Shown here: piece by piece, positions 32,445 through 56,312 of the stretch
How positions within the stretch are numbered: the first letter of the stretch is position 1
How the letters are laid out: each line of letters starts with the position of its first letter
IMG/VR virus record: IMGVR_UViG_3300044609_000960
Location: 95,263-159,262 of that record
Direction: 5' to 3' (one strand)
Source: a virus
DNA length: 64,000 bases
Translations under genes and position numbers: made by a program
The notes under the pieces: model-generated
The model's input: the letters and a program-made list of their open reading frames with translations, nothing else
Told to the model about the DNA's origin: nothing
Databases searched by the model: none

Positions 32445-32972
32445 ATGGAGAACGATTTAAGAGTCCCTGAGGGTTGGGGTGTTGCAGAATACGCCGAACC
32501 TGGTAAGGACACTGGTAAACAATCTAAGAACCTAGAGTTAATTGCACCTGGTCCTCAGAGTGGTGAAGATGATTATCATTCTCAATATGTAGACCCAGAA
32601 GGTAAGTTTGGTGCTGCGAAGACAGAACGTGGGTCCTCAGAGCATTGTTCATATGGCGGAGAAGAATCCTCCCAAGAAGAACCAAAAGGCTCCCAGCCCT
32701 ATGATGTTGGTCAACTCCACCTCGAAGATAAAGAAGTAGTGGTGGAAGATGGTAGACAGAGAGGCTATCATTACTATCTTGTTACCCATCCCGACGAAGA
32801 GTATTTCTACTCTGTTATTCCTAAACTCCGTGGTAATAAAGAGACCTATAAGAGCCCACGTAAATCAACTCGTAAGGAAGCCCTAGAAGCAGCCTATAAA
32901 GTTCTCAATGTAACTCTCCCTGCTTCTATTTCAGATCAGATGCATTACACGTATCCAGAATCAGAAATATGA
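32445..32972 (+). CDS. Hypothetical acidic protein with N-terminal VPEGW tag
   Basis: 175 aa ORF, GTTTAAAG motif 23 nt upstream. Confidence 0.65.
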   Translation: MENDLRVPEGWGVAEYAEPGKDTGKQSKNLELIAPGPQSGEDDYHSQYVDPEGKFGAAKTERGSSEHCSYGGEESSQEEPKGSQPYDVGQLHLEDKEVVVEDGRQRGYHYYLVTHPDEEYFYSVIPKLRGNKETYKSPRKSTRKEALEAAYKVLNVTLPASISDQMHYTYPESEI

Positions 32973-33023
32973 TAGAATAAGATTCTATCCATTTAATCAA
33001 CCCATACCCTCTTTCTCCATCCC

Positions 33024-34019
33024 ATGAGCAGTATCCTCGAGCATAATAAGATGATCTTTAAAAAGGACACAGGGTTTGACTTCCCTGAGTTCTATGACTA
33101 TTATGAACGTACCGTGGCTAGCGTATGGCGACATCAAGAAGTTGCCATGGAGTCGGATCTTCGCGACTGGCAATTCAACTCCACTCCAGATGAAAGGAAG
33201 GTTATTGCTGGTATCCTCAAGGGATTTGTAAGTGCTGAGTTGGGTATTGGTTGCTACTGGGCTGATGAGGTCTGTCGAATCTTCCCCAAACCGGAGATCC
33301 AGGCCATGGCCAAAGCCTTTTCATTCTTTGAGACAATTCACGCTGCAGCCTACTCGTACCTGAATGATGTTCTAGGTCTTAAGGAATACGAGGAGTTTAT
33401 CAATGATCCTGTTGCCTGTTCTAAGATCGATACGTTCTTCTCTAAATATCCCGATAAGGTATCTCTCGCCGTATTCTCTGGAGCTGGTGAGGGTGTAAGT
33501 CTCTTTAGTTCTTTCGCTGTTCTCCTCAGTTTTAATAAGGATGGACGTTATAAGGGACTTGCTCAAATCATCTCTTGGAGTGCTATTGATGAACAAACCC
33601 ATTCAGAGGCAGGTTGCCAACTCTTCCGTCGACTTGTCGATGAGGTAGGTCTTTCTGAGGATGATAAAAAAGCAATCTATGATGGATTTCAATTAGTTAT
33701 TGATAAAGAGTTTGCTTTTATTGACCATATCTTCAACTCTGCTAGTATTTCTTCGATTGACGCAAATGAGTTGAAAGCTTATATTAAGAACAGAGCCAAC
33801 GAACGTCTACTTCTTCTAGGCCTTGATCAAATGTTCAAACTATCAACCCAAGAACTAACTCAAGCGAAGTCAGTTTCTTCATGGTTTGATCCAACAGTCA
33901 AGGGTGCAAGTAGCACAGACTTCTTCGCTGCCTCTAAAGACGGTGCGAATTACGTTGCCAAAGTCTCCCAAGACTTTATGACAGTGGATCTTTCTGCACT
34001 CGATCTAGTACTTTCTTGA
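33024..34019 (+). CDS. nrdB: Ribonucleotide reductase class I beta subunit
   Basis: ETIHAAAY, EGVSLFSSF, DEQTH iron ligands; TDFF tail. Confidence 0.95.
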   Translation: MSSILEHNKMIFKKDTGFDFPEFYDYYERTVASVWRHQEVAMESDLRDWQFNSTPDERKVIAGILKGFVSAELGIGCYWADEVCRIFPKPEIQAMAKAFSFFETIHAAAYSYLNDVLGLKEYEEFINDPVACSKIDTFFSKYPDKVSLAVFSGAGEGVSLFSSFAVLLSFNKDGRYKGLAQIISWSAIDEQTHSEAGCQLFRRLVDEVGLSEDDKKAIYDGFQLVIDKEFAFIDHIFNSASISSIDANELKAYIKNRANERLLLLGLDQMFKLSTQELTQAKSVSSWFDPTVKGASSTDFFAASKDGANYVAKVSQDFMTVDLSALDLVLS

Positions 34020-34029
34020 TTTAAATAAG

Positions 34030-34227
34030 ATGGCTATCCATCCCAACCCCGATCGTAATGAAAACTTAATGGCAAGAGACCACGGCACGGTCTGCCTAAT
34101 CACTGATATAAGAGCTGATAGATACCTCAAGAGAATTAAGAAAAACCTACCACCAGAGAATAGATACTCTCGTCCTTGTGGTGGAAAAAATGGATTTGAT
34201 GATTACGTAGAAAGATGGCATGAATAA
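34030..34227 (+). CDS. Small hypothetical protein
   Basis: 65 aa ORF filling the gap after nrdB, overlapping the next gene. Confidence 0.55.
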   Translation: MAIHPNPDRNENLMARDHGTVCLITDIRADRYLKRIKKNLPPENRYSRPCGGKNGFDDYVERWHE

Positions 34228-34630
34228 CTTTAGAACCCCAGACGGTTGGAGGGTGAGAGGCCGGGAACAGGGAGGAAGAGAATTCTCCGGTTCAGAAGAA
34301 ACATGGAAGCAGTGGAGAAATTCTCCATATGAGGTAAGTAATACCGGGAAAGTACGTCGTAAGGGAAGCGGTGAAGTCCGTAAACCTAGAGACGATGACC
34401 GAAAACATCAGAGGGTCAACCTCACATGGGATGGTAAACGTGAAGAACCACCTCTACATCAGATGGTAATGGAAGTATTTGGTCCACCTAAACCTAAGGG
34501 AGAGAATATTGTCATTCTTCATAAAGATAATGACGGGACAAATAATGCAATCTCGAACTTAAAATGGGGAACTAAATCAGAAAACGTACAACAAGCCCAC
34601 GACGACGGATTAATCGATAATAGTCGTTAA
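34220..34630 (+). CDS. NUMOD4-HNH endonuclease-like protein with N-terminal TPDGW tag
   Basis: YEVSNTGKVR (NUMOD4), LHQMV..F, HKDND..NN..SNLKWGT.SEN (HNH_3). Confidence 0.85.
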   Translation: MNNFRTPDGWRVRGREQGGREFSGSEETWKQWRNSPYEVSNTGKVRRKGSGEVRKPRDDDRKHQRVNLTWDGKREEPPLHQMVMEVFGPPKPKGENIVILHKDNDGTNNAISNLKWGTKSENVQQAHDDGLIDNSR

Positions 34631-34734
34631 ATAAAACTAAATAACTAACTAACCAACCCATTGAGTTACATCTTAGTAACTATTGGGTTCGTTTACCATG
34701 CCTTATGATAGAATAAACTACCCACTTTGATCAA

Positions 34735-36651
34735 ATGCCAGAACTTCAAGTACCAGAATGGATGAGCAAGGAAGCTGTTGATACCCTCTCACGAGGATAT
34801 CTATGGAACGCTGAGACTCCTAGAGGAATGTTTGAGAGGGTCTCAAATCAAGCAGCAAAGATCCTTGACTACCCAGAGCTCTCTGAGGATCTCTTTGAGG
34901 TTCTTTGGAGAGGGTTTCTTGGCCTAGCCACTCCTGTGGCCAGTAACTTTGGCACCTCAAGGGGACTACCAATTAGTTGCTATTCCACTCATCTTTCTGA
35001 CTCTGTCCAGTCTATCTACTCCCACCTCAAGGAAGTCGCTGCATTATCTAAAAATGGTGGAGGAGTAGGAATATACCTAGGTGATATCCGTCCTTCTGGA
35101 TCCCCAATCGCTTCCGGTGGGAAGAGTACTGGCATTGTGCCATGGGCTCGGCAATATGACCAATGTGCCTCTGTGGTTTCTCAAGGTGGAGTGAGGAGAG
35201 GTAGTTTTGCCATGTATCTCCCAATCGATCATCCTGATCTTGCTGAGTTACTTCGCACCAAAGACCATTCCCAAGGAGACCCACGGGATTTTATCGATAG
35301 TAATATTGCTGTTTCGATCACCGATGAGTGGGTGGAGAGTATGATTACTGGGGATCGGGATAAGCAAAAAATCTTTGGTGAGGTGCTTAAGGCTCGGATG
35401 ATTAGTGGGTCTCCCTACATTATCTACATTGATAACGCTAATCGCGCCAATCCCGAGTGCTATACTCAACGTGGTCTTAAAGTAAGTCTCAGTAATCTCT
35501 GTTCTGAAATCTTCCTTCACACTGACGAAAACCACACCTTTGTATGCGTACTCAGCTCCATCAACCTTGCCCGATGGGAAGAATGGAAAGACTGGAGAGG
35601 GGCAAAGACTGGCAAATCTGTACCTGAGTTGGCCGTATACCTCCTCGATGCGGTGGTTGAAGAGTTTTGCCATAAGGGTGATCGCATGCCTTCCATGGGT
35701 CGGAGTGTCCGCTTTGCACGTAAATCCAGAGCCCTTGGCCTAGGTACTATGGGACTCCATGCTCTTTATCAGTCCAAGAGTCTCCCATTTGCATCTAAAG
35801 AAGCGCGGGATCTCAATATTGAGACTCATCGATTTATTAAAGAACAAGCAATTAAGGCTTCGGAAGAGATGGCCAAACGATATGGCGAGCCGGAGTGGTG
35901 CGAGGGAAGTGGTCGTCGTCATACCCACCTTATGGCAATTGCCCCAACCCGGTCCAACTCAGTTATCTGTGGAGCAGTGAGTCAAGGAATCGAGCCTATT
36001 GACGCAAATTATTATGTTGCTAAGCAAGCAAAAGGAACCTTTGTACGTAAAAATCCTTATCTCGAAAATCATCTGGAGTCTATTGGGAAAAATACAGATG
36101 AGGTATGGGAAAGCATCTTGGAGTTTAGGGGATCTGTGCAACATTTAGACTTCCTGTCAGAGGACGCAAAGAATATCTTCCTTACTGCCCGGGAGACTGA
36201 TCAGTTTGAACTCGTAAAACAGGCATCTGATCGTCAACCATATGTCTGCCAAGGGCAATCCCTCAACCTCTTCGTAGATCCAGAGTCCTCCCCTGAGTAC
36301 CTCTTCAAGCTCCACTTGAGCGCCTGGAAAGGTGGATTGAAATCACTCTATTATCTGAAGAGTAGTTCGCTCCTTGTGAAACGTAAGAAACTCGAGACAG
36401 TAACTAAAACTGCAAAGATCATCACCAAGGAAACGTGCCCATATTGCACTATGGCAAAGTCCTTGCTCAAATCTAAGGGCTATAAAATCGAGGAGATTGA
36501 CCGGGCCGAAGTACCTGACTCAGAGTTTCCTTATCGCACCGTTCCTCAAATCTGGATTAATGGTTCCTATATCGGAGGGTATACTGACCTTGCCGAAAAG
36601 ATCGGCACTCCAGAAAAACAATATGGAGACTGCGCTGCTTGTGAAGGTTGA
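34735..36651 (+). CDS. nrdA: Ribonucleotide reductase class I alpha subunit with glutaredoxin fusion
   Basis: PISC, GGGVG, RRG, NLCSE, APT, LYY; then CPYC, TVPQI, IGGY (Grx) and terminal CAAC. Confidence 0.95.
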   Translation: MPELQVPEWMSKEAVDTLSRGYLWNAETPRGMFERVSNQAAKILDYPELSEDLFEVLWRGFLGLATPVASNFGTSRGLPISCYSTHLSDSVQSIYSHLKEVAALSKNGGGVGIYLGDIRPSGSPIASGGKSTGIVPWARQYDQCASVVSQGGVRRGSFAMYLPIDHPDLAELLRTKDHSQGDPRDFIDSNIAVSITDEWVESMITGDRDKQKIFGEVLKARMISGSPYIIYIDNANRANPECYTQRGLKVSLSNLCSEIFLHTDENHTFVCVLSSINLARWEEWKDWRGAKTGKSVPELAVYLLDAVVEEFCHKGDRMPSMGRSVRFARKSRALGLGTMGLHALYQSKSLPFASKEARDLNIETHRFIKEQAIKASEEMAKRYGEPEWCEGSGRRHTHLMAIAPTRSNSVICGAVSQGIEPIDANYYVAKQAKGTFVRKNPYLENHLESIGKNTDEVWESILEFRGSVQHLDFLSEDAKNIFLTARETDQFELVKQASDRQPYVCQGQSLNLFVDPESSPEYLFKLHLSAWKGGLKSLYYLKSSSLLVKRKKLETVTKTAKIITKETCPYCTMAKSLLKSKGYKIEEIDRAEVPDSEFPYRTVPQIWINGSYIGGYTDLAEKIGTPEKQYGDCAACEG

Positions 36652-36676
36652 CAGAGATAACCTATTATGATAGAAT
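36648..36676 (+). promoter_or_regulatory. Sigma70-type promoter
   Basis: TTGACA-N17-TAGAAT with TG extension. Confidence 0.85.
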
Positions 36677-36699
36677 CTAAAAGCCAATTTATTAACGAC

Positions 36700-37155
36700 A
36701 TGATGTTCGATTACGCAAAATTTATCGACCAAGGATATGCCTCTCAGCAGAAATATGCCAAGGCAGCCGGACAACCTGGACCTCTTGACCCAGATCTCAC
36801 CAGAGAAGATCGTCATGCAAAAGTAATCGAGTACATGGGTCATCTTATTGAAGAGACTATTGAAGCCCGAGTTTATGTCCCTCGTCGCAGTTGGAAAAAT
36901 AATGAACCTTCATTCCTAGACAATGATAAAAACCGAGAGGAATTTATCGCAGAGATGTTTGACATTCTTCTCTTCCACCGCGCTGCTCTTGCATACGCCG
37001 GTGTGACAGGATCTGAATTTGCAGAGATTGCGGAAAAGAAAATGAATTACAATTCAAAACGCAAGGACCATAACGTCAATGGTACTGAATCCGCATCTCA
37101 AGACCCCGCACAAGAACTCCAAGGAAACTGCTCATCTGCCAACTTTAATGGCTAA
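36700..37155 (+). CDS. All-alpha dNTP pyrophosphatase (dimeric dUTPase / T4 gp56 dCTPase / MazG superfamily)
   Basis: EETIE, PRRSWK, EMFD, KMNYNSKR motifs; track ATG at 36667 lies inside the promoter so 36700 is preferred. Confidence 0.75.
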   Translation: MMFDYAKFIDQGYASQQKYAKAAGQPGPLDPDLTREDRHAKVIEYMGHLIEETIEARVYVPRRSWKNNEPSFLDNDKNREEFIAEMFDILLFHRAALAYAGVTGSEFAEIAEKKMNYNSKRKDHNVNGTESASQDPAQELQGNCSSANFNG

Positions 37156-37318
37156 AGAAACACAGTATAAAGCATTTGGCACCACTCGGTGCCATTATTG
37201 CGATGGGAGGGGGTTTCTAATCCTCCAACAATCAACTCTGGAGGGCAAGATCCTCCCTAACCACGTAGAAGAATGCGAAAGGTGCAATGGAAACGGATTT
37301 TTTGAACAGAATAACTAG
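37148..37318 (+). CDS. Small DnaJ-type zinc-finger protein
   Basis: 56 aa with two CxxCxGxG motifs (CHYCDGRG, CERCNGNG). Confidence 0.65.
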   Translation: MAKETQYKAFGTTRCHYCDGRGFLILQQSTLEGKILPNHVEECERCNGNGFFEQNN

Positions 37319-37772
37319 AGGGCAAATTCTTGTTCTTAATGCTAGTTATGAGCCAATCAACATAACCTCTTGGAAGAGGGCATTTGTCCTCCTCTTGAAA
37401 GAGAAGGCTCAAATAATCAATCATAGGGTCATCCGCCTAGTTGAGTATATCAAAATCCCATTTACAAAACTTCGCAATAACAAACCTACCAGAAGCGCAA
37501 TCTACGCGCGAGATGGTCATAAATGCCAGTACTGTGGCGCAACTCGTAAGTTAACTATTGATCACGTTATTCCAAAATCCAAAGGTGGGAGCGATGATTG
37601 GGACAATTTGGTTGTTGCTTGTTCTTCTTGTAATACTAAAAAAGGAGATAAATATCTTGAGCAGACGGGGATGAAGCTCATTAGAATACCAGTTCAGCCA
37701 CGCACTCATCTCGACTTGGCAATTTCCCAAACAAATCTTACAGAATGGCGTGAATACTGTTTTATAGTTTAA
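37287..37772 (+). CDS. HNH endonuclease (McrA/HNH_5-like)
   Basis: LVLNASYEP, RDGHKCQYCG, TIDHVIP, NLVVACSSCN. Confidence 0.92.
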   Translation: METDFLNRITRGQILVLNASYEPINITSWKRAFVLLLKEKAQIINHRVIRLVEYIKIPFTKLRNNKPTRSAIYARDGHKCQYCGATRKLTIDHVIPKSKGGSDDWDNLVVACSSCNTKKGDKYLEQTGMKLIRIPVQPRTHLDLAISQTNLTEWREYCFIV

Positions 37773-37805
37773 AATAGTTATATGGAGGGCCAATCAGGTT
37801 CTCTT

Positions 37806-37902
37806 CGTTCATCGGGAGGTATCTCCCGACGCAAGTAGGCCGACGGAAGGAACGCATCGTTCAGCAAGAAATCTTGCCGAAAGTACGCCGACTGAAGGAA
37901 CG
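37806..37902 (+). ncRNA. Tandem glnA-motif (glutamine) riboswitch aptamers
   Basis: Two units, 37806-37854 and 37858-37902, each CGTTCA-hairpin-G(C/A)AAGTA..CCGAC.GAAGGAACG with P1 CGTTC/GAACG; upstream of DUF4278-like gene. Confidence 0.8.
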
Positions 37903-37943
37903 GGATAAGTAAACCTTATTCTCATTTCTTTGGAGGTAAACTA

Positions 37944-38081
37944 ATGGCTAAAGTAGTATATCGTGGCGTTGAGTATGATACTCAAAAACGTCTTGAGTAT
38001 CAACAACAAATGATGCAACAACCCCAACAATACAACGAGACCTATCGTGGTGTTAAGTTTACTAAGGAGGGGCACAAATGA
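37944..38081 (+). CDS. DUF4278-like small protein (45 aa, not in ORF track)
   Basis: MAKVVYRGVEYDTQKRLEYQQQMMQQPQQYNETYRGVKFTKEGHK; two YRGV motifs; GGAGG RBS. Confidence 0.85.
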   Translation: MAKVVYRGVEYDTQKRLEYQQQMMQQPQQYNETYRGVKFTKEGHK

Positions 38082-38173
38082 CAAATAAACTAAATTTTCT
38101 TCAGCTTATCAAAGAGCAGAAGCAAAAAGCAGATAGACGTCATAAAGCATCTTTGGCTCAGATAAAGCGATAG
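38078..38173 (+). CDS. 31-aa peptide (not in ORF track)
   Basis: MTNKLNFLQLIKEQKQKADRRHKASLAQIKR; AAGGAGG RBS, ATGA overlap, terminator follows. Confidence 0.65.
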   Translation: MTNKLNFLQLIKEQKQKADRRHKASLAQIKR

Positions 38174-38185
38174 ATTAAAGTCAAG

Positions 38186-38214
38186 GAGAGGGGACAATCT
38201 TCCCTCTCTTTTTT
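38186..38214 (+). terminator. Intrinsic terminator
   Basis: GAGAGGGGA/TTCCCTCTC stem plus T run. Confidence 0.75.
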
Positions 38215-38221
38215 ATTAGAT

Positions 38222-38788
38222 ATGGACTTCTATTTTTCTTTTGGCAAAAAGAGAGCTTCAGAAAGAGAAACAATCTTTTCTGCAGCTATTATCTGGGGGT
38301 TCATAGAGGCAATAATGGACCCACTCTTGGACTTCTTAAATAAGAAGATCATAGCAAGATTTGATGGGGAAAAGTTAAAGGTAGTATTTGATGAGTTGGA
38401 TATATTTTGGCTAAGAAATGGTAATAGTAAACATTATTCCGACTCTGACATAAGATTAATAATTTCTTTATTTTTAAGATCAGTAGAAGATAATAATTTA
38501 ACCAGAAAGGAACTTCTTGCTTTAGTAGATTTTATTCAGAGAAAGTGGATTGCCTCTGAGGCATTACAAAAAACCTTTACCCAAACAGACGAGGTAATTG
38601 ATGCTTATGTAGAGGCCACAGTAGATCAGGCAATCGAACTCTATGAGAAGACCTATATGGAAAAGCCACTAACCCCAGAGGAGTTTGTGGCTAATACTGC
38701 AGAAATAATCTTCCATGAGCCAGATGGGAGCAAAGCCCAAGAACTCTTAGGAGGAATGATGGAGATTAAAAATAAATTTTTCTATTAA
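38222..38788 (+). CDS. Hypothetical protein
   Basis: 188 aa helical ORF. Confidence 0.6.
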   Translation: MDFYFSFGKKRASERETIFSAAIIWGFIEAIMDPLLDFLNKKIIARFDGEKLKVVFDELDIFWLRNGNSKHYSDSDIRLIISLFLRSVEDNNLTRKELLALVDFIQRKWIASEALQKTFTQTDEVIDAYVEATVDQAIELYEKTYMEKPLTPEEFVANTAEIIFHEPDGSKAQELLGGMMEIKNKFFY

Positions 38789-39999
38789 ATCGACCAAAGA
38801 GGCTTCATTGGCTTTTTAGAATCGGTATTATTCTGCCTAAGAATTTTTGTCGATCCATCATCCTTTCTCTCAGGCTCAATCCATTCTCTCTTACCATCGA
38901 GCACAGCTGCGATCTCAGTAATCCAGTCCCCTGCAGTACATGCAGGGACATTTTGGCAAATTACATTACTATCTTTGGTGGGAATATGGACCTTCTCAGC
39001 GTAGTCATTAGGAAAGCCCATAAGCGCTAGACCTTCTGCCACAGTCAACCAACGGTCCTCGTGGGGATGCATAAGATAAGGCAATGACTTCCACATGAGA
39101 GATTGGGTTCTATACCAGGCCAGCTTCATGCTCCCATCCATGATATTTTTACCTGCTTTTTTCTTCTCAAGAGTGTAGTTGAGCCAACGATTAGCCTTCT
39201 CATCTTTAACAACTCTACAAGCCTCTTCTAACCAACCTGAGTCATGAATAACATTCCATACTGAAGTCATACGTTCAGATGCTACATGAGCAAGTATGTC
39301 TTGCTTAGTCGAACCTACAAACTTTGATTCAATAAACTGCCAGAGTGGATCTTCACTGGGAAGTTTTTTAGACTTACTAACAGAGTCGCTAGGAGCAAAT
39401 CTCCCGTCCTTAAGAAACTTATGGAATGGGTCAAATGATTTTTTGATAGGTGCCATAACAGGTACCTTATCTCCTTTCCATAGGAAGAAGAATGAACGAG
39501 TACGCTCTTGAGGCACTCCATGATTAATCGAGGTGGTTTTCACCAAACTCATAGTATACCCATGTTCATTCGCCAAGGCATTAATCCTTTCTGCAAACTC
39601 CTCACCCATCTTTGAATAAAGAGTAGGGGCATTCTCCACCATAATTGCCTTTGGCTTAATGTTCTTCATTGAAAACTCAGCAGCATTGTACATATGAATG
39701 TTACTAGGAGCTGAGCAACCACGAGGATTATTTGCTTTATCCCCTGAGGTGGTATTTGCCATCGAAAGTCCTGCGCATGGAGGCAAAGACGTAACAATAT
39801 CTACGTACCCTTTAGGAAATGCATTCTCTTCAAAGTCATAAAAAGGCACCTTGTCCATATACTTGAGGCAATATTGATCATTAGCCCCAAACACACTGCC
39901 CCAAGATGCAATCCATTCAGGCTCTGATCCTAGAGCAATCGATGTTCCAACAACACTGCCACCTACTAGGGGGATAATGTGTCCGTGAGTGTACGCCAT
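38785..39999 (-). CDS. Divergent DNA cytosine-C5 methyltransferase-fold protein
   Basis: PPC (IV), ENA (VI), PQERTR (VIII), RWLT..E...LMGFP (IX), QNVP (X); motif I reads IPLVGG instead of FxGxG. Confidence 0.85.
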   Translation of the reverse strand: MAYTHGHIIPLVGGSVVGTSIALGSEPEWIASWGSVFGANDQYCLKYMDKVPFYDFEENAFPKGYVDIVTSLPPCAGLSMANTTSGDKANNPRGCSAPSNIHMYNAAEFSMKNIKPKAIMVENAPTLYSKMGEEFAERINALANEHGYTMSLVKTTSINHGVPQERTRSFFFLWKGDKVPVMAPIKKSFDPFHKFLKDGRFAPSDSVSKSKKLPSEDPLWQFIESKFVGSTKQDILAHVASERMTSVWNVIHDSGWLEEACRVVKDEKANRWLNYTLEKKKAGKNIMDGSMKLAWYRTQSLMWKSLPYLMHPHEDRWLTVAEGLALMGFPNDYAEKVHIPTKDSNVICQNVPACTAGDWITEIAAVLDGKREWIEPERKDDGSTKILRQNNTDSKKPMKPLWSI

Positions 40000-40077
40000 A
40001 AAGTATTTGTGATATTATCTAAGGGATCCTTAGACTGAAAATCTTCGGTTTAAAGACTAGGGAGGATAGAATTAGAA

Positions 40078-40374
40078 ATGGACAAAAAACTCTCGACTCA
40101 GGATTACATGGAAATCTTGAAGAAGAAGCGCCAAGATGGGACATATGACTATGCAGATCGTGTGTTCTATAAAGGTAAAGTCATGCTAAAATGTCCTCCA
40201 GGATCTACAAAAGCTGGAAATACCTGCGTCCCATCAATGAAAACACCAGCGGGTATGGGACCTGGAAAAACCTGGCAAAAAGACTTAGGTGGTATTAATC
40301 CCCAACAAGTACAACAACTAACAACAGCTAAATCCCAAAAAGACGTTAAAAAAGCCAGAAAGTCCGGCAGTTAA
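40078..40374 (+). CDS. Small basic protein with CPPG...CVP motif
   Basis: 98 aa, GGAGG and GTTTAAAG upstream. Confidence 0.6.
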   Translation: MDKKLSTQDYMEILKKKRQDGTYDYADRVFYKGKVMLKCPPGSTKAGNTCVPSMKTPAGMGPGKTWQKDLGGINPQQVQQLTTAKSQKDVKKARKSGS

Positions 40375-40392
40375 ATTGTTTTTATAATAACT

Positions 40393-40635
40393 ATGATTGA
40401 AAGAATCTCAAAGCCAATTCGCTTTGATAAGCAAATCCCTTGGCTAATTGTTGCCCGTGATGGAGAAAAATTCTTTGTAGCAAAAGAAGATGTAATTGCA
40501 GAAGATCCCTCAATGGAACTTATTGAGATGGGTTCTCGCTCACTCCTCCAGTGGGCCATGGAATATGACTATCCACTCCGTAAATTTGTAAAGCTCCAAA
40601 AAATCCTTGTTAAGAAGTATTTCGATATTCAGTGA
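40393..40635 (+). CDS. Hypothetical protein
   Basis: 80 aa ORF co-oriented with neighbours. Confidence 0.55.
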   Translation: MIERISKPIRFDKQIPWLIVARDGEKFFVAKEDVIAEDPSMELIEMGSRSLLQWAMEYDYPLRKFVKLQKILVKKYFDIQ

Positions 40636-40688
40636 TAAAGAGGTTTCCTATGATAGAATGATGATCAAATCATTCACCTCGGGAGACC

Positions 40689-41525
40689 ATGACTCTATCC
40701 TTTGATTATCAGTACATCAAGATCGCAAAAGAGATCCTTTCTGAAGGAACTGAGATCGTCGGCCGGAATAATCTGCGATACAAGCAGATGTTCGGCCAGA
40801 CTATCAAAGTTGATATTCGGGAAGGATTTCCTGCATTGACCATTCGTAAAATGCCCGTTCGTAATCTCTTCAGAGAGTTTATGTGGGATATCAATGGGGA
40901 TTATAAAGTTTCAGCACTTGGTCCCGCAAAACATTTCTGGGATTTTCTGGCCGATACTGAAGGCCGTCTTGCTGGGTCTTATGGACGTTCTTGGCGCTCT
41001 TGGCCACAAGTCTGCCCAGAACAAGATATGCAATGGGAAAACTTCCGTGCCAAACCATTCGATCAGCTCAAGTGGATCTGGGAACAACTCCGCATTAACC
41101 CCACCAATCGACAACTTGTTCTTCAGACTTTTAATCCTGCTTACGATTCTCTTCACTGCCCTCCTTGTCATCCTAACGTCGTGTTTTCTAGCGATGGGGC
41201 TCATCTGGATATCTTGGTAACAGCTCGGAGTAATGACATGGCCACCGGGGTCCCCTTGGATATGTTCCGTTATAGCATTCTTTGCACAAAGATGGCTCAA
41301 GATGCAAATCTTATTCCTAGGTTTGTGATGTTTACTTCTGCCAATAATCACATCTATCTGCAGAATGAGATGGCCATTGAATCTATTATCAAGAACGTCC
41401 CAATGGAACCTTGTGACCTCTGGATTAATAATGAAAAACCCTTGTTCGATCTTGATCCAGAAATTGATTTTGAATTGATTGATTATCAGTCTCATCCTGC
41501 TGTCCGTATGGAGGTGGCAAACTGA
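40689..41525 (+). CDS. Thymidylate synthase homologue, predicted dCMP (hydroxy)methylase
   Basis: GFPALT, FRE..W, YG..W, PPCH, RSND, HIY; Asp191 at the position equivalent to E. coli Asn177. Confidence 0.85.
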   Translation: MTLSFDYQYIKIAKEILSEGTEIVGRNNLRYKQMFGQTIKVDIREGFPALTIRKMPVRNLFREFMWDINGDYKVSALGPAKHFWDFLADTEGRLAGSYGRSWRSWPQVCPEQDMQWENFRAKPFDQLKWIWEQLRINPTNRQLVLQTFNPAYDSLHCPPCHPNVVFSSDGAHLDILVTARSNDMATGVPLDMFRYSILCTKMAQDANLIPRFVMFTSANNHIYLQNEMAIESIIKNVPMEPCDLWINNEKPLFDLDPEIDFELIDYQSHPAVRMEVAN

Positions 41526-42802: not shown

Positions 42803-42845
42803 CCAGATCCATCCTATAATAGTCCCCTAGGGACTTTTTTTCTTT

Positions 42846-46029: not shown

Positions 46030-46072
46030 TAATTAGGGTTTAAAGACAATATAGATATAGCTTTAATTCCCA

Positions 46073-47887
46073 ATGCCGGGCCGTGACGAACTATTACAAC
46101 AGAATAGATCCGCGGTTAAGGCTAGGATAGAATCAGCCGGGGAGGAGGCGTCGACTGGAGGCCAAAAGCCTGTCTACTCCTCCCATCGCAGTCTTTTAGG
46201 GGGTAATTTAGATGTTGCCTCGGCATTGGAGAGTATTGAATTTGCAATCAAGGGTCCTCTCGGTGATGGTGCATTACGTAACTCAGTAGCTTATATACGG
46301 TATTGGAATAGACCTGGGAGCAAATCAACTGCGGAGAACTCTGCCCAGATCATAGATGCTACTCAAATCGATCCGGCATTAGATCCTCAGTTACAAACCG
46401 CAGAACAATTAGCCAATGCGTGGTATGATGGCGGTGAACTTCCAGATAATACTACTATAGAATATAGTACCTCCTTACCAGGTGAGGCTGATGCAACTGA
46501 TTGGTATACAGTAAATACTGGAGTAGAAAGAGATGAGGATGGAAATATAATCCGTGGAATAAGCCAGACAGTCTTTGCTTCGCCTAATACCGATCGACAA
46601 AAGGCTCTTTCTCAAGAAATACCTACAACTAGAACTTATTCTGGAGATCCTAGGGCAATTATAGTTGCAGATACCGAGCAGATCGGTGGAGGAGGCAGAG
46701 GATCTAGGGTTGCTGATCAGCAGATCGGACAAGTTAAACCTGCAAATCCTAACGGATTTGTAAATACCGTCTCAAGAACAGGAAGAAGTGTATTAGGCCT
46801 TCCACCTGGACAGATAGGATATACAGGTCAAGCTGGAGGAGCCCAAGGAGGCAAAGCTGCTCTTGCTTCAGGTGGTACATTAACCAAGGGCATGTGGCAG
46901 TTCCTCTTCAATCCCTCTGAGTTGGAGATTGAGGCCGGACCTGAATTCCGAACGGCAGAAACCTGGGGGGTTAGTGATAAAGCAAACTCCGGCCAACCAC
47001 TCAACTGGAGCCATAATAAAAATACTCAACTCAAGTTTAATTCTGTGCTTCTCAATGGATATGTATTTGGACGCAAGGTAGAAGAACTGGAGCAGGGTAT
47101 CTTTGAGCTCTTTATGGCTAGAGATGGAGAGGGTCAGGCTGGACCTCCTATCCTTGAGTTTGTATGGGGAAAGAGAGTGTTTGGCCCATGTGTGATTAAG
47201 GATATCTCCATTAAAGAAAAGATGTGGGATGAGGGGATGGTTGTTAATGCAGAACTATCCTTTACCCTTGAGCAGATTCCTGAATGGACGATTAATGACG
47301 GATATGTGGATGTGGCTAGACCCGGCCGGATTCCTATGGTCTATGATGCCACTGAATCCGGTCCTGTTGGCGTAGGAAGCACAGTGCCTCCAGGCGCGTC
47401 TCCAGATGCTAAGTCTCCAGATCAAAAATCTCAAAAACCCCAACCCCAGTCTCAAGGAGTATTAAGTGAAAGAGTCTGTGAAAGGGCCTATTATTATACT
47501 GGGTTATTCACCCAATTTAGAACAAGAATGAAGAATATAGGAGGATTTTTAAACCTTGGCAGTTATTCTGAGTATGGAAGAATCATGACAGAGTTCCAAA
47601 TAAAATATCAAGATGCTATTCAAGAATTAGGTAGCGATTTTGATAATCCTTCTCAGGCGAAAATATTATATCAAACAATACAAAATATAGTAGATCCTAA
47701 CAGAGGTTTAATTGCTACGGATATTGAAAATAGACTTACGCCCATTATACAAAAAGCAATTAATAAAGCTGGTGCTATATATAATAGCCCAACTAAATGT
47801 CCCTCTACAAGAGGTTCTACGGTACAACCGGAAAGAAATGGAACCCGTGGTGTAAATACTAGATTATCCACTCCCCTCAATTTATAA
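46073..47887 (+). CDS. CIS-tube/tail tube initiator-like protein
   Basis: FLFNPSEL, PPILEFVWG, CVIKDISI, AELSFTLEQ motifs. Confidence 0.7.
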   Translation: MPGRDELLQQNRSAVKARIESAGEEASTGGQKPVYSSHRSLLGGNLDVASALESIEFAIKGPLGDGALRNSVAYIRYWNRPGSKSTAENSAQIIDATQIDPALDPQLQTAEQLANAWYDGGELPDNTTIEYSTSLPGEADATDWYTVNTGVERDEDGNIIRGISQTVFASPNTDRQKALSQEIPTTRTYSGDPRAIIVADTEQIGGGGRGSRVADQQIGQVKPANPNGFVNTVSRTGRSVLGLPPGQIGYTGQAGGAQGGKAALASGGTLTKGMWQFLFNPSELEIEAGPEFRTAETWGVSDKANSGQPLNWSHNKNTQLKFNSVLLNGYVFGRKVEELEQGIFELFMARDGEGQAGPPILEFVWGKRVFGPCVIKDISIKEKMWDEGMVVNAELSFTLEQIPEWTINDGYVDVARPGRIPMVYDATESGPVGVGSTVPPGASPDAKSPDQKSQKPQPQSQGVLSERVCERAYYYTGLFTQFRTRMKNIGGFLNLGSYSEYGRIMTEFQIKYQDAIQELGSDFDNPSQAKILYQTIQNIVDPNRGLIATDIENRLTPIIQKAINKAGAIYNSPTKCPSTRGSTVQPERNGTRGVNTRLSTPLNL

Positions 47888-47901
47888 AGAAAAGATAATC
47901 C

Positions 47902-50900
47902 ATGGCAACTTCATCAATAATCCTAGATATACGGGCTAATACACAGAGAGCTCTTAGTGAGTTCAAAACGTTCTCATCCCAACTCGATAATAAATTCCTA
48001 GTATCTGGACTTAAACTCGATGTAGTTCGCAATGCGCTTTCCCAAATCAACCGTGAGTTTCAAAAGAGCCTAGGGGAGCAAGGACTAGCCTCAGCGCAAT
48101 CTCTTAAAGCCGCAGAGAACCAAGCCGCGATCCTAACCAATATCTATGCTGGATTCAGCAAAACTGCATCTGGTCGTATTGTCGAGGACTTTTCATCGGC
48201 TCTTAATATAGTAGCCACAAGAACCGGATCTACGGTTTCTGATATTCAGAAAACCTTAGCAGTATCACCCTATCTTTCTAGGGATTTGTCGCAAGGTATT
48301 AGACAGAATATCCTTGTAGATATTCAAAATCTCCAAACCGCTGCTCGTAGAGCCGGACTTGGAGGCAACACCGCTGACATTCTTAATAAGTTCCTAACTG
48401 GGCAGACAGGTGGCCAAGAGCTCCAAGAATCTGGGGATACACTCTCCAAGATGCTTGGTGCGGAGCTAAGTAGAGTTGGTGGTGGAGTTGGTACAGAGAC
48501 AATGTCTCTCTCCGAAAGAACAAGGATTCTCCGCGCCGCCCTAGCAAATATAGACATTGAGGGATTTGCCAAAGAAACTGGTGGATTTAGGGCCGTATTA
48601 GAACAATTCTCGGCATCTCTCTTCAATCCAAAGGCCGGCCTTCTTGGCGCAATGAGGGAGTTCGTCTTAAAGACCGGCGAGGCTCCAACTACTATTTTTA
48701 AAGAAACTACAAAACTTTTTGAGAGTATCTTTGGTGAAGAAGGATTTATTAAAACTCTGAGTAGAGAACTCGCTAAAGCATTTGGTCTTAGGGGCGAAGA
48801 CACAGCCATAAGATTCTTAGGCAGAGGGATTCGGTTTATTACCAATCTCATCAATGGTGCTAAAAATCTAATCGATGATATCCTTAATACTCCAATAGTC
48901 CGTAAAGTTGTAGAGATAATTAGGTCAGCTTTTGATGGTATTGTAGGATTTTTAAGGAAGCTTGAAGGTATTGCCAATAACCCTCCAGACTTCCCAGATA
49001 TCTCAAAGGAGAGTATCCAGACATTTATCCGAGATATCGGGGAAAACGTACGTGGATTCTTACGTAAAGTAGGAGCATTTATTCGCGGAGAGGATATTTC
49101 CGATGAGGCAAATACCGGGGCATCAATTGTTGGTACAATAGTCGATGAGGCTGGTAAAACCATGCTCACCTTCTTCAAGGAAGTTGGTGATGCCTTATTA
49201 GCTAAAACCGGCACCATTGCCCTTGAACTTGCTAAAGTCCTTCCAGGAACCATTGCCGGGGTTATTGCCAAAGGACTAACCGGAGCAGGAGGGATTACAG
49301 GATTTATACTTTCGGCCCTTGGGGTAGGAGGACTGGGACTAGGTGCCTCAAGAGCCTTTGGCGGATTTAGGAGAGGTGTTCTTGCTGGAGAAGGTGGGGT
49401 TCCAGGCGCTATAAATAGATTCTTAGGTTCTCCTGTTGGCCCATTAAGACCAAGAGCTAGAGTCACTGGAAGTGGCCGAACACGTGGAGGCGGAGGTGGA
49501 AGAAGAACCGGAGAGGTTTCTCCTCCTGACTTAGATGATCTACTCAGTTCAATTAGAAATGAGGATGGGGCTCCTACACAAACATCTTATAGAAGGGGGC
49601 TTAGAGATAGAATCAGAGATAGATACTCAAGAACAATTGCTCCGAGATCACAATGGCCAAGGCCAGGACAAAATCTTGAATTACTTGCCCGTAGAAAAGC
49701 AATAACTGAGGGTAGAATCACTCCCTCAACCTCTGTATTAGCAGGCACTATAAGTGAGTTATTGACTCCAGAAGAAATTCTGTCGCAATATTCCCGGCCA
49801 GGCACAAAGATCAATAGATATAATACAATGTTCAAATCTATTGATATGCCAGATCAATATCTCACTCAAGCTGGCCCTCTTCCCCTCGAGTCAGCCGAAC
49901 CTTGGACAATGGCCGAAGGAGCATATCAGCCATATATGGGTGAAGTAAATCCGGCTGTAACTGAAAGGAAAGACTTTCTTACCAATCAACGTAGACAGGG
50001 ATTAATCGAAGAAGCAGCCTTTAGAAGAAAGATTAGAAGTAGACAAAGTGTAAGACAAAGATTTGCTCAAAGATATGGTCGTGGTGCGCTTTTAAGAACG
50101 CAAATGGGAAGATTAGGACGTGGTGGAGTACCCAATGTGCCCGGCGGGAAGTTTGGTCTTGCCATGACTGCACTTGGGTTGGGTGCAATGGCTCTCGACG
50201 CTGGGCAATCTCAAGCAGGACAAGATGAATTTGGACAAGAAATCCCTCAACCTAAAGTAGGAACGGGAGCTGCTTGGGGTTCTGTTGGTATGGGAGTTAC
50301 TCAAGGAGCATTAGCCGGTTCAGCTTTAGGCCCATGGGGCGCGGCGATTGGTGGAGTTATTGGTGGTGGAATATCTCTGATGGATAAAGGTGTCAGAGAT
50401 GCTATAGGAAAATCATTGAGAGACTTTGGATCTAATGCGCTTAAATGGGGTGGTGAATTAGCCGAAGGACTAAAATCCAACATATTTAAAGGATTTGAAA
50501 CTATCAAAAACTTTGCAAAGGGAATAGACTGGAAGCAAAGAATCTTAGATATTGTATTCCCCGGCAGATCTTTGCTGAGAATGGGAGCGGAAAGAGTTGG
50601 TTTGGAGAGAAGTGGACGAAACTCCGGCTTTGGGGCTAATGTTAAAAATTGGCTTGCTAATATTCTAGGCCTTAAAGAAGTAGGTGGCCCCGTAATAAGA
50701 GGTGCTTCCTATATCGTGGGAGAAAGAGGTCCTGAGATTTACACACCTGGAGAAACTGGCACTATATCCTCTAATAGAGAGCTGAATTCTCTTATTTCTG
50801 GGGCTCAAAAAAATAAACCTATTAGTTCCTTAGATGGTGGAGGTGCAGTATTTAACATTACTATTAATGCCACCGGCTTAGCAGGTAATGATATTGCTGC

Positions 50901-50991
50901 TGCAATCCAACCTGCTGTTATGCAAGTACTGGACACCGCGTGGAGTAGATCTAACTCCAACATCGTAACAAGAGGAGCAACAATAATCTAA
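47902..50991 (+). CDS. Tape measure-like protein
   Basis: 1029 aa helical, Gly-rich hydrophobic segments, C-terminal GGPV...YIVGERGPE. Confidence 0.75.
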   Translation: MATSSIILDIRANTQRALSEFKTFSSQLDNKFLVSGLKLDVVRNALSQINREFQKSLGEQGLASAQSLKAAENQAAILTNIYAGFSKTASGRIVEDFSSALNIVATRTGSTVSDIQKTLAVSPYLSRDLSQGIRQNILVDIQNLQTAARRAGLGGNTADILNKFLTGQTGGQELQESGDTLSKMLGAELSRVGGGVGTETMSLSERTRILRAALANIDIEGFAKETGGFRAVLEQFSASLFNPKAGLLGAMREFVLKTGEAPTTIFKETTKLFESIFGEEGFIKTLSRELAKAFGLRGEDTAIRFLGRGIRFITNLINGAKNLIDDILNTPIVRKVVEIIRSAFDGIVGFLRKLEGIANNPPDFPDISKESIQTFIRDIGENVRGFLRKVGAFIRGEDISDEANTGASIVGTIVDEAGKTMLTFFKEVGDALLAKTGTIALELAKVLPGTIAGVIAKGLTGAGGITGFILSALGVGGLGLGASRAFGGFRRGVLAGEGGVPGAINRFLGSPVGPLRPRARVTGSGRTRGGGGGRRTGEVSPPDLDDLLSSIRNEDGAPTQTSYRRGLRDRIRDRYSRTIAPRSQWPRPGQNLELLARRKAITEGRITPSTSVLAGTISELLTPEEILSQYSRPGTKINRYNTMFKSIDMPDQYLTQAGPLPLESAEPWTMAEGAYQPYMGEVNPAVTERKDFLTNQRRQGLIEEAAFRRKIRSRQSVRQRFAQRYGRGALLRTQMGRLGRGGVPNVPGGKFGLAMTALGLGAMALDAGQSQAGQDEFGQEIPQPKVGTGAAWGSVGMGVTQGALAGSALGPWGAAIGGVIGGGISLMDKGVRDAIGKSLRDFGSNALKWGGELAEGLKSNIFKGFETIKNFAKGIDWKQRILDIVFPGRSLLRMGAERVGLERSGRNSGFGANVKNWLANILGLKEVGGPVIRGASYIVGERGPEIYTPGETGTISSNRELNSLISGAQKNKPISSLDGGGAVFNITINATGLAGNDIAAAIQPAVMQVLDTAWSRSNSNIVTRGATII

Positions 50992-51512
50992 TGATTAACT
51001 TACCACAAATAACTTCTAGGGTTGATACTGCAGAACTACAGAATATCAAAAACCAACTAGCTTTGCGCGATAGGATTAATGCTGATAACTATGAAAATAT
51101 CCAGCTCGAAAGAAAAAATCCATCGGTAATTTTCTCAGAACAATCAAACCCGTCGCTCTCCGACTCAGCACTTCGAGGCCTATCTTATCCCCTAGAGCTT
51201 AATGGCAAAGGCGGATTAAAGCTATCCTCAAACTATGACAGAGTTGGCCAGCAAATACTAGAGGTCTTACAAACTCGCATTGGAGAAAGGGTCTATAGGC
51301 CATTCTTTGGTATTCCTGAATTGCTCTTTGAGACCATCGATGAATACACATTAGCTCAAACAATCCGCTCTCAGATTGGCTCAGTGGTACCCACAGGTGT
51401 GGAATTAGAGGTTAAAGTATCTCTATCCGAGGATGGTGGCGCTCAGATAATAGTATTCTATTCAGTCGAAGGTAGTCAACCCGCCCTTGTTAAATACGCA
51501 TTTAGACCATGA
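50991..51512 (+). CDS. Baseplate wedge gp25/gpW-like protein
   Basis: GLSYPL, LQTRIGERVYRPFFG, LLFE. Confidence 0.88.
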   Translation: MINLPQITSRVDTAELQNIKNQLALRDRINADNYENIQLERKNPSVIFSEQSNPSLSDSALRGLSYPLELNGKGGLKLSSNYDRVGQQILEVLQTRIGERVYRPFFGIPELLFETIDEYTLAQTIRSQIGSVVPTGVELEVKVSLSEDGGAQIIVFYSVEGSQPALVKYAFRP

Positions 51513-51934
51513 GTCGTATCCATAAAAACTTTGCAGAATTTGGCTCAGATGCTCAGCAGATGATCATCGACCAGATTCAATCTATCGATCTTGAGAAGAT
51601 TGGGCCAAAGTCCATTGCTCACGTCGGTAAAACACTTATCTCCCTAGTTAAGCAATCCCACCAACTCCAGGAAGATGTTGAAGAGGAGGAAGTACGGGAT
51701 AACTGGATTGCTATTAGAGAACTTTCTCATATCCTCCTTGTTGAGATCCTTGAGAAGTTTAAAGAGTTGAGTGCCCTTGGTGAAATTCCTGAATGGGAAC
51801 GGGCAAATGTCCTCAATCTTCTCCAAGAGATTACAAAAGTCTGCCACGCAGAAGAAAAACGCGATGCCCTCTCAGAGATCAATACTGGGAAAGTCATTGA
51901 TGACAAAATACTCGACGAGATGTTAGGATTATGA
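51509..51934 (+). CDS. Hypothetical helical protein
   Basis: 141 aa, ATGA-coupled on both sides. Confidence 0.6.
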   Translation: MSRIHKNFAEFGSDAQQMIIDQIQSIDLEKIGPKSIAHVGKTLISLVKQSHQLQEDVEEEEVRDNWIAIRELSHILLVEILEKFKELSALGEIPEWERANVLNLLQEITKVCHAEEKRDALSEINTGKVIDDKILDEMLGL

Positions 51935-52092
51935 TGAACATTGACCAGGTCAGAGCAGGTGGTGAGGGAATGCTCTCCTCTGCCAAGAAACGCAAAGAGG
52001 AAGAAGCAGCCGAAGGACCAGATCTCTTCCAAACCAAAGAACAAAAAGTTAAAGTAAAAGTCCCAGACGGATGGCATACTAAGGAGCCATGA
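51931..52092 (+). CDS. 53-aa protein with VPDGW tag (not in ORF track)
   Basis: MMNIDQVRAGGEGMLSSAKKRKEEEAAEGPDLFQTKEQKVKVKVPDGWHTKEP; ATGA overlap, exactly fills the gap. Confidence 0.7.
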   Translation: MMNIDQVRAGGEGMLSSAKKRKEEEAAEGPDLFQTKEQKVKVKVPDGWHTKEP

Positions 52093-52093
52093 G

Positions 52094-52297
52094 ATGCCCC
52101 GCGAATGGAACACTCCTGTTAGAGAGTGTTGGAATGCCCCCATTCATAACATTCTCAAAGCAATAGATAATCATACTCAGATATACCTAAGAACCGGGGA
52201 TAAGTGGCATCTTGAGCAGGCCGCCTTCCTCAGGGTATATGTTTCAGATCTTAAGACTTGGATACATAGTCAAGAGAAGAATCAGTTTAAGGATTAG
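52094..52297 (+). CDS. Conserved cyanophage-type hypothetical protein
   Basis: MPREWNTP.RE.WNAPIH..LKAIDNH; AAGGAG RBS. Confidence 0.7.
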   Translation: MPREWNTPVRECWNAPIHNILKAIDNHTQIYLRTGDKWHLEQAAFLRVYVSDLKTWIHSQEKNQFKD

Positions 52298-52315
52298 GGA
52301 GAGTTATAATTACCC

Positions 52316-55071
<2,756 letters not shown>

Positions 55072-55072
<1 letters not shown>

Positions 55073-55203
55073 TGGACAATAAACTTAGCCCGGAATTAGA
55101 ACAAAAATTACAAAAGAAGCATGGATGGGGAGAATTCTCCGCGATTAAAGTAGTAAAGAAAGCTGTTCAAAAACCTGAAGGTTGGAGAGAACAGGGAAAA
55201 TGA
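55072..55203 (+). CDS. 43-aa protein with KPEGW tag (not in ORF track)
   Basis: [43 protein letters not shown]; TAATG overlap with effector gene, GGAG upstream. Confidence 0.65.
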
Positions 55204-55237
55204 TCGTTTAAAGTACTATATAAATAGTATTAATATC

Positions 55238-55876
55238 ATGCCACTCAAAGAAGGCTCAAGTGATGAGACCATCTCAAAAAATATAAAAACAGAGATGGAA
55301 TCGGGTAAACCACAAAAACAAGCCATAGCCATCGCCTTGGATAAGGCTGGTAAATCCACCTCGGATAATGCAGAACCAGAAGAGGGACAAATGGCCCAAG
55401 GGGATGTCCGTGCGATCATGGCCATGGCCAAAAAGATCGATGATATGGTCTCAGAGATGACCGATCTGCCTGAATGGGTCCAGGCAAAAATCACCAAAGC
55501 CCAAGACTATTTAACATCAGTTACCCAACATCTATCGCATCCAGGAGAAGATCAAATGGCACAAGATATGGGCGAAGGAAAAGACCACGATAAGGATGGT
55601 GATGTTGACTCTGATGATTACATGATGGCAAGAGATAAGGCAATCGATGAAGCCATGGGTAAGGATGAGGAAACCTCTGACAATGCCGAAGACTCCGATC
55701 CTTGCTGGAAAGACTATGAGATGGTTGGAATGAAGAAGGGTAAGGGTGGTAAGCCTGTTCCTAACTGTGTACCCAAGTCTTCTGACAATGGTGAATGTGA
55801 AGAATGTTCTGACGAGTACTCAGAAGTAAATGTTCCTGACGGTTGGTCGGTAAGTTCCAATGTCTACAAAAATTAA
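55238..55876 (+). CDS. Acidic modular putative head-internal protein
   Basis: [13 protein letters not shown]...[17 protein letters not shown], DxDxDGDxD, CWKDY...VPNCVP modules; C-terminal VPDGW. Confidence 0.7.
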
Positions 55877-56312
55877 TATACCTGATGGTTGGTCAGTAAG
55901 TCCTTCTTTTGGGGAGATTCCATCTCCTTATGATAAGAAACAACATCTCGAAGGTCAGCATGATAAGCAGGATAGCGGCATAGATGATGAGGTCTCTGAT
56001 GAGGCTAATATGTCCGAGGAAGAATATAAATATTGGTCTAAAGAATACGCAGAAGAGACCAATTATGCTGACGATGGTAAAAAATATACTCACACGTATA
56101 AAGATCCTAAGACTGGCAATACCCGTAAAGTCCGCTATGGTGCAAAAGGATACACCATCGCCCCAGGGACAAAGAAAGGCGATTCCTATTGTGCCAGATC
56201 CTTGGGAGACATGAAGTCTGAAGGGATGGACTGTTCCGGTCCAGATAAAAATACTCCGATGTGCCTATCAAGGAAAAAATGGAGATGTAAAGGGGCCAAG
56301 TCATCTAGGTAA
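55860..56312 (+). CDS. Putative head-internal protein (YCAR...KWRC family)
   Basis: N-terminal IPDGW, acidic leader, basic VRYG...SYCARS...RKKWRC domain. Confidence 0.7.

Follow-up and report, generated by a model that had tools for sequence, protein, structure and literature searches.

A P-[DE]-G-W peptide tag on unrelated proteins of a TIM5-like cyanophage as a candidate address for incorporation into the virion

Carriers of the tag in the window

The DNA analyzed here, referred to below as the window, is the final 64 kb (64,000 nucleotides) of the 159,262-bp genome of a phage (IMG/VR record IMGVR_UViG_3300044609_000960, positions 95,263 to 159,262). Judged by its primase, 62% identical to that of cyanophage S-TIM5 (genus Aurunvirus) and its sisters, and by the collinearity of the genome with that of S-TIM5, the phage is a relative of S-TIM5. 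Seven plus-strand genes of the window encode mostly unrelated proteins that share a short peptide with the core P-[DE]-G-W, hereafter called the tag. A first-pass annotation, made from the letters of the DNA without database searches, had listed seven heptapeptides of this kind and proposed that they mark cargo for the virion. All seven translate as it had written them, each in frame within an open reading frame (ORF). As it had also described, six of the copies lie no more than 12 residues from an end of their protein, and the seventh is internal, in a low-complexity stretch (Table 1).

The first carrier is a 175-amino-acid (175-aa) protein in which P8, G10, and W11 are invariant across 10 aligned homologues (64 to 92% identity). 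AlphaFold gave no confident fold for this protein (predicted local distance difference test score, pLDDT, of 35), and residues 1 to 98 of the model are without secondary structure. The second carrier is an HNH endonuclease whose tag is placed on a 26-residue extension preceding the NUMOD4 domain. Up to the proline, the tags of this enzyme family read F-R-T-P or F-V-K-P, and three loci have the variant P-N-G-W. The tagged nuclease was present in 15 of the 15 relatives whose locus extends that far, with 75 to 92% identity, which is similar to the conservation of nrdB. Its domain make-up is that of a homing endonuclease, and fixation in all relatives examined at this level of conservation is unusual for a selfish element. 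The comparison suggests that the nuclease has been domesticated.

The other five carriers are encoded close together, within or bordering a plastic cassette that is not the same in all relatives. Two of them are micro-proteins. In the family of the 53-aa protein, V-P-x-G-W-x-x-K-E is kept in eight members. At the position of the 43-aa micro-ORF, loci L005 and L032 have 50-aa ORFs, and the only part in common is the end, P-P-E-G-W-K-E-Q. The 53-aa protein also begins with MMNIDQVR, and the major capsid protein begins with MMNLDQVR (genome positions 41094-41117, minus strand). Both N-termini are conserved in S-TIM5, and their codons differ; MMN[IL]DQVR may be a second shared signal or a mimicry of the capsid N-arm.

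Table 1. Tagged genes and associated features (positions are those of the window)
Feature	Position	Strand	Tag and its position	Remarks
Late motif	32415-32422			30 nt upstream of the ATG of the 175-aa gene
175-aa protein (S-TIM5 gp094 family)	32445-32972	+	LRVPEGW, 32457-32477	N-terminal; P at residue 8
136-aa HNH endonuclease (NUMOD4 + HNH_3)	34220-34630	+	FRTPDGW, 34229-34249	P at residue 7; gene between nrdB and nrdA
141-aa protein	51509-51934	+		Untagged; overlaps start of 53-aa tagged gene
53-aa micro-protein (S-TIM5 gp067 family)	51931-52092	+	VKVPDGW, 52054-52074	C-terminal; 5 residues after W
MMNIDQVR of the 53-aa protein	51931-51954	+		
918-aa protein	52316-55072	+	IQIPDGW, 52652-52672	Residues 113-119; K/P/A/Q-rich stretch
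phrog_2423-like leader of the 918-aa protein	52316-52366	+		
43-aa micro-ORF	55072-55203	+	VQKPEGW, 55165-55185	C-terminal; 5 residues after W
Late motif	55206-55213			30 nt upstream of the 212-aa gene
212-aa protein (S-TIM5 gp066 family)	55238-55876	+	VNVPDGW, 55826-55846	C-terminal; 9 residues after W
phrog_2423 leader of the 212-aa protein	55238-55366	+		Residues 1-43
Overlap of the 212-aa and 150-aa genes	55860-55876	+		17 nt, different frames
150-aa protein (S-TIM5 gp065 family)	55860-56312	+	INIPDGW, 55872-55892	N-terminal; P at residue 8
425-aa protein	56800-58077			Phage lysozyme and C39-like cysteine peptidase domains
Phage Hsp20	58202-58636			Ends S-I-Q-I-W
Look-alike in AAA ATPase core	59067-59087	+	YKVPEGW	PEGW at 59076-59087

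Enrichment and placement of the tag in the lineage

How often would such a peptide arise by chance? A greedy gene call of the whole genome gave 190 ORFs with 51,156 residues, in which P-[DE]-G-W was observed 9 times. From composition, 0.31 occurrences are expected, and 2,000 within-protein shuffles gave a mean of 0.28 and a maximum of 4. The full tag context is found at seven of the nine sites, and these are the seven of the first-pass annotation. The other two lie in folded proteins. One, in the terminase (14402-14413, minus strand), is not conserved in S-TIM5 and is probably unrelated to the tag. The second, YKVPEGW, belongs to an AAA ATPase; it falls in the part of the core that separates Walker B from sensor 1, at a distance of 128 residues from the N-terminus, and is conserved along with the whole domain (87% mean column identity); argued from position only, it is probably intrinsic to the fold and not a tag. 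Alignments of this ATPase to solved structures ended before the look-alike.

Codons vary between copies of the tag, as the first-pass annotation had noted, so that conservation is that of a peptide and not of DNA. Around each 21-mer, identity among the 30-base flanks is at chance level, except for the neighboring copies at 55826 and 55872, which have W-S-V-S in common as well. A DNA repeat or recombination site was rejected as the origin of the copies on the basis of this chance identity.

The cassette had no match at the nucleotide level in the phage collection, and relatives were found via their proteins. S-TIM5 and more than 30 loci from uncultured relatives together provided 64 distinct instances of the tag, not counting the ATPase. 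The consensus is Phi-x-[VI]-P-[DE]-G-W-x-[VI], nine residues in length. P, G, and W are invariant across the 64 instances, which for these residues follows from the construction of the search, and the flanks and codons drift. In alignments of the carrier families, no columns near the termini other than these three are fully conserved. Among 73 instances, V or I occupies position -1 in 60, and I, L, or V occupies position -3 in 44; Y, F, and P are also frequent at position -3. The HNH tags have T, K, or R at position -1. The acidic position is occasionally N, S, R, K, Q, or A. In the family of the 150-aa protein, P[DE]GW is present in 89 of the 120 database homologues listed, and the full-length homologues that lack it have P-E-D-W, P-D-D-W, or P-[SRKQA]-G-W.

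The position of the tag within the protein is not fixed. Of the 64 instances, 42 are N-terminal, with the proline at residues 4 to 17 (mostly 7 to 8), and 18 are C-terminal, with 4 to 10 residues beyond the tryptophan. The remaining four are internal, every one of them in a transferase fusion protein and located at the fusion joint. Five orthologues in S-TIM5 have kept the tag while the residues around it have changed: gp094, gp089 (HNH), and gp065 at the N-terminus, and gp067 and gp066 at the C-terminus. Thus, the part of the first-pass annotation that described a short linear motif on unrelated carriers is borne out by both its enrichment and its retention in orthologues. We found no description of a PDGW or PEGW motif in the searchable literature.

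The tag is restricted to the TIM5-like lineage. We scanned genomes with the DNA pattern CCNGANGGNTGG and used the reversed pattern as a control. Four whole or nearly whole TIM5-like records had 7 to 11 matches each (reversed control, 0 to 3), and a fifth had 5 (control, 0). There was no enrichment in the two T4-like Synechococcus phages tested, Syn9 and S-PM2, each of which had a single match (control, 0). The more distant S-CBWM1, which has the same polymerase type, had five matches (control, 0), none of them terminal. These five were rejected as tags because each lies in the interior of its protein, in one case a member of the shared DNA polymerase family.

Gene fission and fusion at the tag

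The three larger proteins of the cassette revealed what happens to the tag when genes are split or joined. The 918-aa protein consists, in order, of an N-terminal phrog_2423-like leader, the tag, a low-complexity region, and a transferase domain at residues 733 to 889. This domain matches PF03496 with 45.7 bits, above the curated cut-off of 23.4, and the protein also matches phrog_802, the Alt-like PHROG family that includes T4 Alt (E = 1e-4). Judged by these profile matches, it is an Alt-like, exoenzyme-type ADP-ribosyltransferase. T4 Alt is a head protein that is injected into the host. In loci L006 to L010, the leader and tag form a separate protein of ∼100 aa that ends in the tag. In the same loci and in L034, the transferase is a free-standing protein of 295 to 331 aa that begins with a tag of its own. 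In L006, the free-standing enzyme has a match to the transferase end of a PHROG family that is classed under head and packaging.

A second split concerns the 212-aa and 150-aa proteins. The 212-aa protein is composed of a phrog_2423 leader, a Cys-containing "CW...PNCVP" domain, and the C-terminal tag; the 150-aa protein has its tag at the N-terminus and a Cys-containing "GKKY...CARS" domain at the C-terminus. In another phage lineage, the "PNCVP" and "GKKY" domains belong to one protein and are joined by a linker, [KR]-D-S-x-W-A-x-G-F. In this genome, they reside on two adjacent proteins, each of which is tagged at the split. The overlap of the two genes makes translational coupling or an occasional frameshift fusion conceivable.

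In both natural fission events, therefore, each resulting polypeptide has its own copy of the tag, one tag per polypeptide. This is what an address label predicts, and a mere linker would not need to be kept on every product. The idea that the tag marks substrates of the phage transferase was rejected, because S-TIM5 retains the tags and has no transferase gene in the cassette.

Proposed destination of the tagged proteins

We propose that the tag is a position-independent docking motif through which its carriers are incorporated into the virion, probably into the head, and we assign this interpretation a probability of about one half. The evidence is indirect. Part of it comes from the deposited annotation of S-TIM5, in which gp094 (60 aa) and gp067 (50 aa) are listed as "virion structural protein and packaging." Among the 51 S-TIM5 coding sequences of up to 70 aa, two are annotated as virion proteins and two are tagged, and they are the same two (P = 1/1275). 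With the limit raised to 100 aa, both tagged proteins are among the 6 annotated as virion proteins out of 84 (P = 0.004). Such tiny orphans could hardly have been labelled by homology, which points to mass spectrometry as the source of the annotation.

Relatives of carrier domains in other phages also point toward the head. The head module of the genome itself is Mu-like: the portal is of the Mu type (PF06074, E = 1e-75), the Mu I-type protease (PF10123) is fused to a scaffold region that is acidic and coiled-coil, and the capsid protein is lambda E-like and accompanied by a cement-like protein. The leader of ∼45 residues that heads two of the tagged proteins (MPL-x-x-GSS...NIK) is also found on small tagged proteins in relatives and is missing from the protease of TIM5-type phages. 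In Burkholderia phage BcepB1A and in the Acinetobacter Obolenskvirus phages, whose heads are likewise Mu-like, the head protease-scaffold polyprotein starts with this leader. A search of the ESM Atlas with the leader returned nothing. Homologues of the 150-aa (gp065-type) domain in another lineage are encoded between the portal/MuF and the scaffold/cement/capsid genes, where a neighboring protein of 100 to 117 aa ends in the W-centred motif [KR]-D-S-x-W-A-x-G-F. Two carrier domain families sit in head modules of other phages. Finally, a late motif, GTTTAAAG, precedes the 175-aa gene, the 212-aa gene (Table 1), and the tail operon that contains the cassette. The first-pass annotation had placed most carriers downstream of a late motif, and this stands for most of them; the HNH gene has none and lies behind nrdB with its motif TGATAGAAT.

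The following model would account for these observations. Hydrophobic residues alternate on either side of the P-D/E-G turn, which suggests that the nine residues form a small beta-hairpin made of a strand, the turn, and a second strand led by the tryptophan. Carried in flexible ends or linkers, the hairpin would bind one phage-encoded receptor during late assembly, and this binding would make otherwise unrelated proteins part of the virion. The restriction of the tag to the TIM5-like lineage, set against the single pattern match each in Syn9 and S-PM2, phages with the same host genus, favors a receptor encoded by the phage. The most probable place would be the inside of the Mu-like head, from which enzymes such as the Alt-like ADP-ribosyltransferase would be delivered together with the DNA.

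Several observations weigh against this interpretation. Three of the five tagged proteins of S-TIM5 (gp089, gp066, and gp065) are without virion annotation, and over all 212 coding sequences, 44 of which are annotated as virion proteins, the coincidence of 2 out of 5 is not significant. The mass-spectrometric basis of the S-TIM5 labels is itself our deduction. The HNH gene belongs to a nucleotide-metabolism operon and follows the middle-type motif of nrdB rather than a late motif. The cassette follows genes of the tail (tube, tape-measure-like, and gp25-like) and not of the head, so that a location in the tail is possible. No receptor was found among the candidates examined. In addition, the sole model of a cargo protein, that of the 175-aa carrier, is of low confidence and does not establish disorder of the tag region.

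Comparison with known systems places the tag near several of them. The first-pass annotation had likened its role to that of the capsid-targeting sequence of T4 (found on IPI, IPII, IPIII, and Alt). The analogy of role stands, as both are short peptides common to unrelated proteins that include an ADP-ribosyltransferase, both belong to a plastic cassette that differs between relatives, and the role proposed here is likewise the loading of the particle for delivery with DNA. Membership in the T4 family does not. The T4 leader, ∼10 residues resembling MKTYQEFIAE, has no sequence resemblance to the tag. It is strictly N-terminal, whereas the TIM5 tag is found at either end or at a joint. It is removed by the gp21 protease after Glu (L/I-x-E), whereas no cleavage of the tag is known and this phage has a Mu I-type protease. 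The T4 leader suffices to load a foreign protein into the head; for the tag, the evidence in this direction is indirect and consists of the virion annotation of two tagged S-TIM5 micro-proteins. The head of this phage is Mu-like and not T4-like.

MuF-domain polymorphic toxins and minor head proteins of the SPP1 gp7 type, reportedly the subject of work by Jamet et al. in 2017, offer a second parallel. There, phages with Mu-type head modules carry effectors, including ADP-ribosyltransferases, into the capsid by way of a head-associated module. However, the address in that case is a folded MuF domain of ∼100 to 300 residues, whereas the shared element here is nine residues long and no MuF is detectable: across the genome, nothing matched PF04233 at E ≤ 1, and none was found in the carriers with Pfam or PHROGs. 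Encapsulin cargo-loading peptides are similarly short, occur at either terminus of unrelated cargo, and dock on the inner face of an HK97-fold shell. They differ in being rich in Gly and Leu without Trp and in belonging to bacterial compartments rather than virions. The I-x-I/V anchor of small heat-shock proteins resembles the I/V-x-I/V that precedes the proline in most tags, and a phage Hsp20 is encoded nearby; the invariant P, G, and W of the tag lie outside this anchor, and several tags do not have the two aliphatic residues.

One potential alternative we consider unlikely. The tag might dock its carriers on a phage-encoded hub that is not part of the virion and that keeps toxic or aggregation-prone late proteins in check. 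The candidates are the 141-aa helical protein (as a chaperone or holdase), the phage Hsp20, and a MoxR-type ATPase with a VWA-like partner. The gene for the 141-aa protein overlaps the start of the 53-aa tagged gene and is the most conserved of the region, with 91% mean column identity; the adjacent baseplate protein is 65 to 69% identical in the more distant relatives. I/V-x-I/V occurs in most tags, and motifs of this class bind in the groove of small heat-shock proteins; Hsp20 itself has such an ending, and the acidic residue at the tip of the turn could be a ligand for the metal site of a VWA domain. Yet the invariant residues are P, G, and W and not the I-x-I positions, which in the HNH tags read F-R-T-P or F-V-K-P, and the acidic residue is at times replaced. 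T4-like cyanophages commonly carry hsp20 and cobS-type ATPases, and S-PM2 and Syn9 nevertheless have one pattern match each. The 141-aa protein is predicted to fold as a helical bundle (pLDDT, 74) with no Foldseek match in the PDB below E = 0.1; VIA-align scored Z values of up to 11.7 and returned only designed or generic bundles, the sole viral match being the S-TIM5 orthologue.

It is improbable that the tag serves mainly as a processing site, at which a phage protease (the Mu I-type head protease or a DUF2201 metallopeptidase-like protein) trims protein ends and frees the transferase from its leader, with targeting left to other elements such as the phrog_2423 leader. The tag of the 918-aa protein does lie exactly between a protease-type leader and the enzymatic part, and the T4 targeting sequence is known to end in a cleavage site. 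However, the leader is missing from most carriers, and the removal of 4 to 10 C-terminal or 8 N-terminal residues would have no obvious purpose. Nor is P-x-G-W present in the capsid protein, the protease-scaffold protein, or the portal, on which ground a general head-protease site was rejected.

We give rather little credence to the explanation that there is no common partner and that the hairpin is an inherited structural cap or recombination joint, spread by gene fission and shuffling within the plastic cassette. In its favor, fusion and fission occur exactly at the tag, and the gp066 and gp065 tags were probably inherited from an ancestral linker, which reads [KR]-D-S-x-W-A-x-G-F in other phages. 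On the other hand, the HNH, gp094-type, and gp067-type carriers are found beyond the cassette or at its margin and have nothing else in common with it, the DNA around the tags is identical at chance level only, and P, G, and W do not vary among the 64 instances while the flanks are free, which indicates that selection acts on the peptide. Least probable of all is a Synechococcus protein as the partner, at which several phage proteins would gather on one host machine or compartment: short terminal motifs are typical of hub binding and the carriers include host-directed enzymes (transferase and nuclease), but the tag is not enriched in two T4-like Synechococcus phages, the S-TIM5 annotation lists the tiny carriers as virion proteins, and an unrelated phage lineage, probably with another host, has a differently worded W-centred motif at the homologous position.

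Incorporation into the virion could be part of a wider scheme, which we put forward as a tentative extension and regard as doubtful in its full form. The Trp-centred hairpin would be a portable, end-independent address for loading a Mu-like head that has lost MuF, and its cargo would comprise an ADP-ribosyltransferase, a kinase-like domain, and an HNH nuclease that has been domesticated. Counterparts that are worded differently and are likewise centred on a tryptophan ([KR]-D-S-x-W-A-x-G-F) would do the same in other lineages. Taken together, such peptides would make up a general code for virion cargo, one that evolves in step with its receptor.

To our knowledge, the way in which phages choose the proteins that travel with their DNA is understood in molecular detail for very few systems, namely, the T4 targeting sequence, MuF fusions, and the P22 and T7 ejection proteins. 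The TIM5-like lineage adds a statistically solid, lineage-wide peptide that occurs at either end of proteins, a defined list of carriers, and natural fission and fusion events in which every polypeptide retains the tag. The question is directly testable in S-TIM5, a cultured phage-host pair. If the tag does load the virion, it would identify the arsenal that an oceanic cyanophage lineage injects, account for the fixation of a homing-type nuclease in all members, and offer a very small handle with which foreign proteins could be loaded into capsids. If its receptor is not borne by the virion, the tag would still be a new interaction motif of phages.

In the lineage with the other W-centred motif, we located [KR]-D-S-x-W-A-x-G-F at the domain joint and near the C-terminus of the neighboring small protein (L054:583-603 and 1110-1130; L056:10283-10303). 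The head module of this lineage is PB1/E217-like. Small proteins there (two in L056 and more among database homologues) have the common N-terminus M-x-L-T-P-x-x-[VL]-R-x-D. On the basis of these sequences, the motif looks like a parallel tag system. A kinase-like protein encoded in the head module of that lineage had no BLAST similarity to the genome analyzed here.

Three further observations concern the surroundings of the cassette and the proteome as a whole. The 425-aa protein with lysozyme and peptidase domains is encoded after a small membrane protein and has no S-TIM5 counterpart. The phage Hsp20 (Table 1) has relatives that end in S-I-A-I-W, S-V-D-I-A, S-V-E-I-T, or S-V-E-I-R; this ending is the usual I-x-I anchor, and in this phage and its closest relative, L005, it is followed by a tryptophan. 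The most over-represented four-residue words in the whole-genome proteome are YDSN, IFYD, and PIFY, with 8 to 11 copies each.

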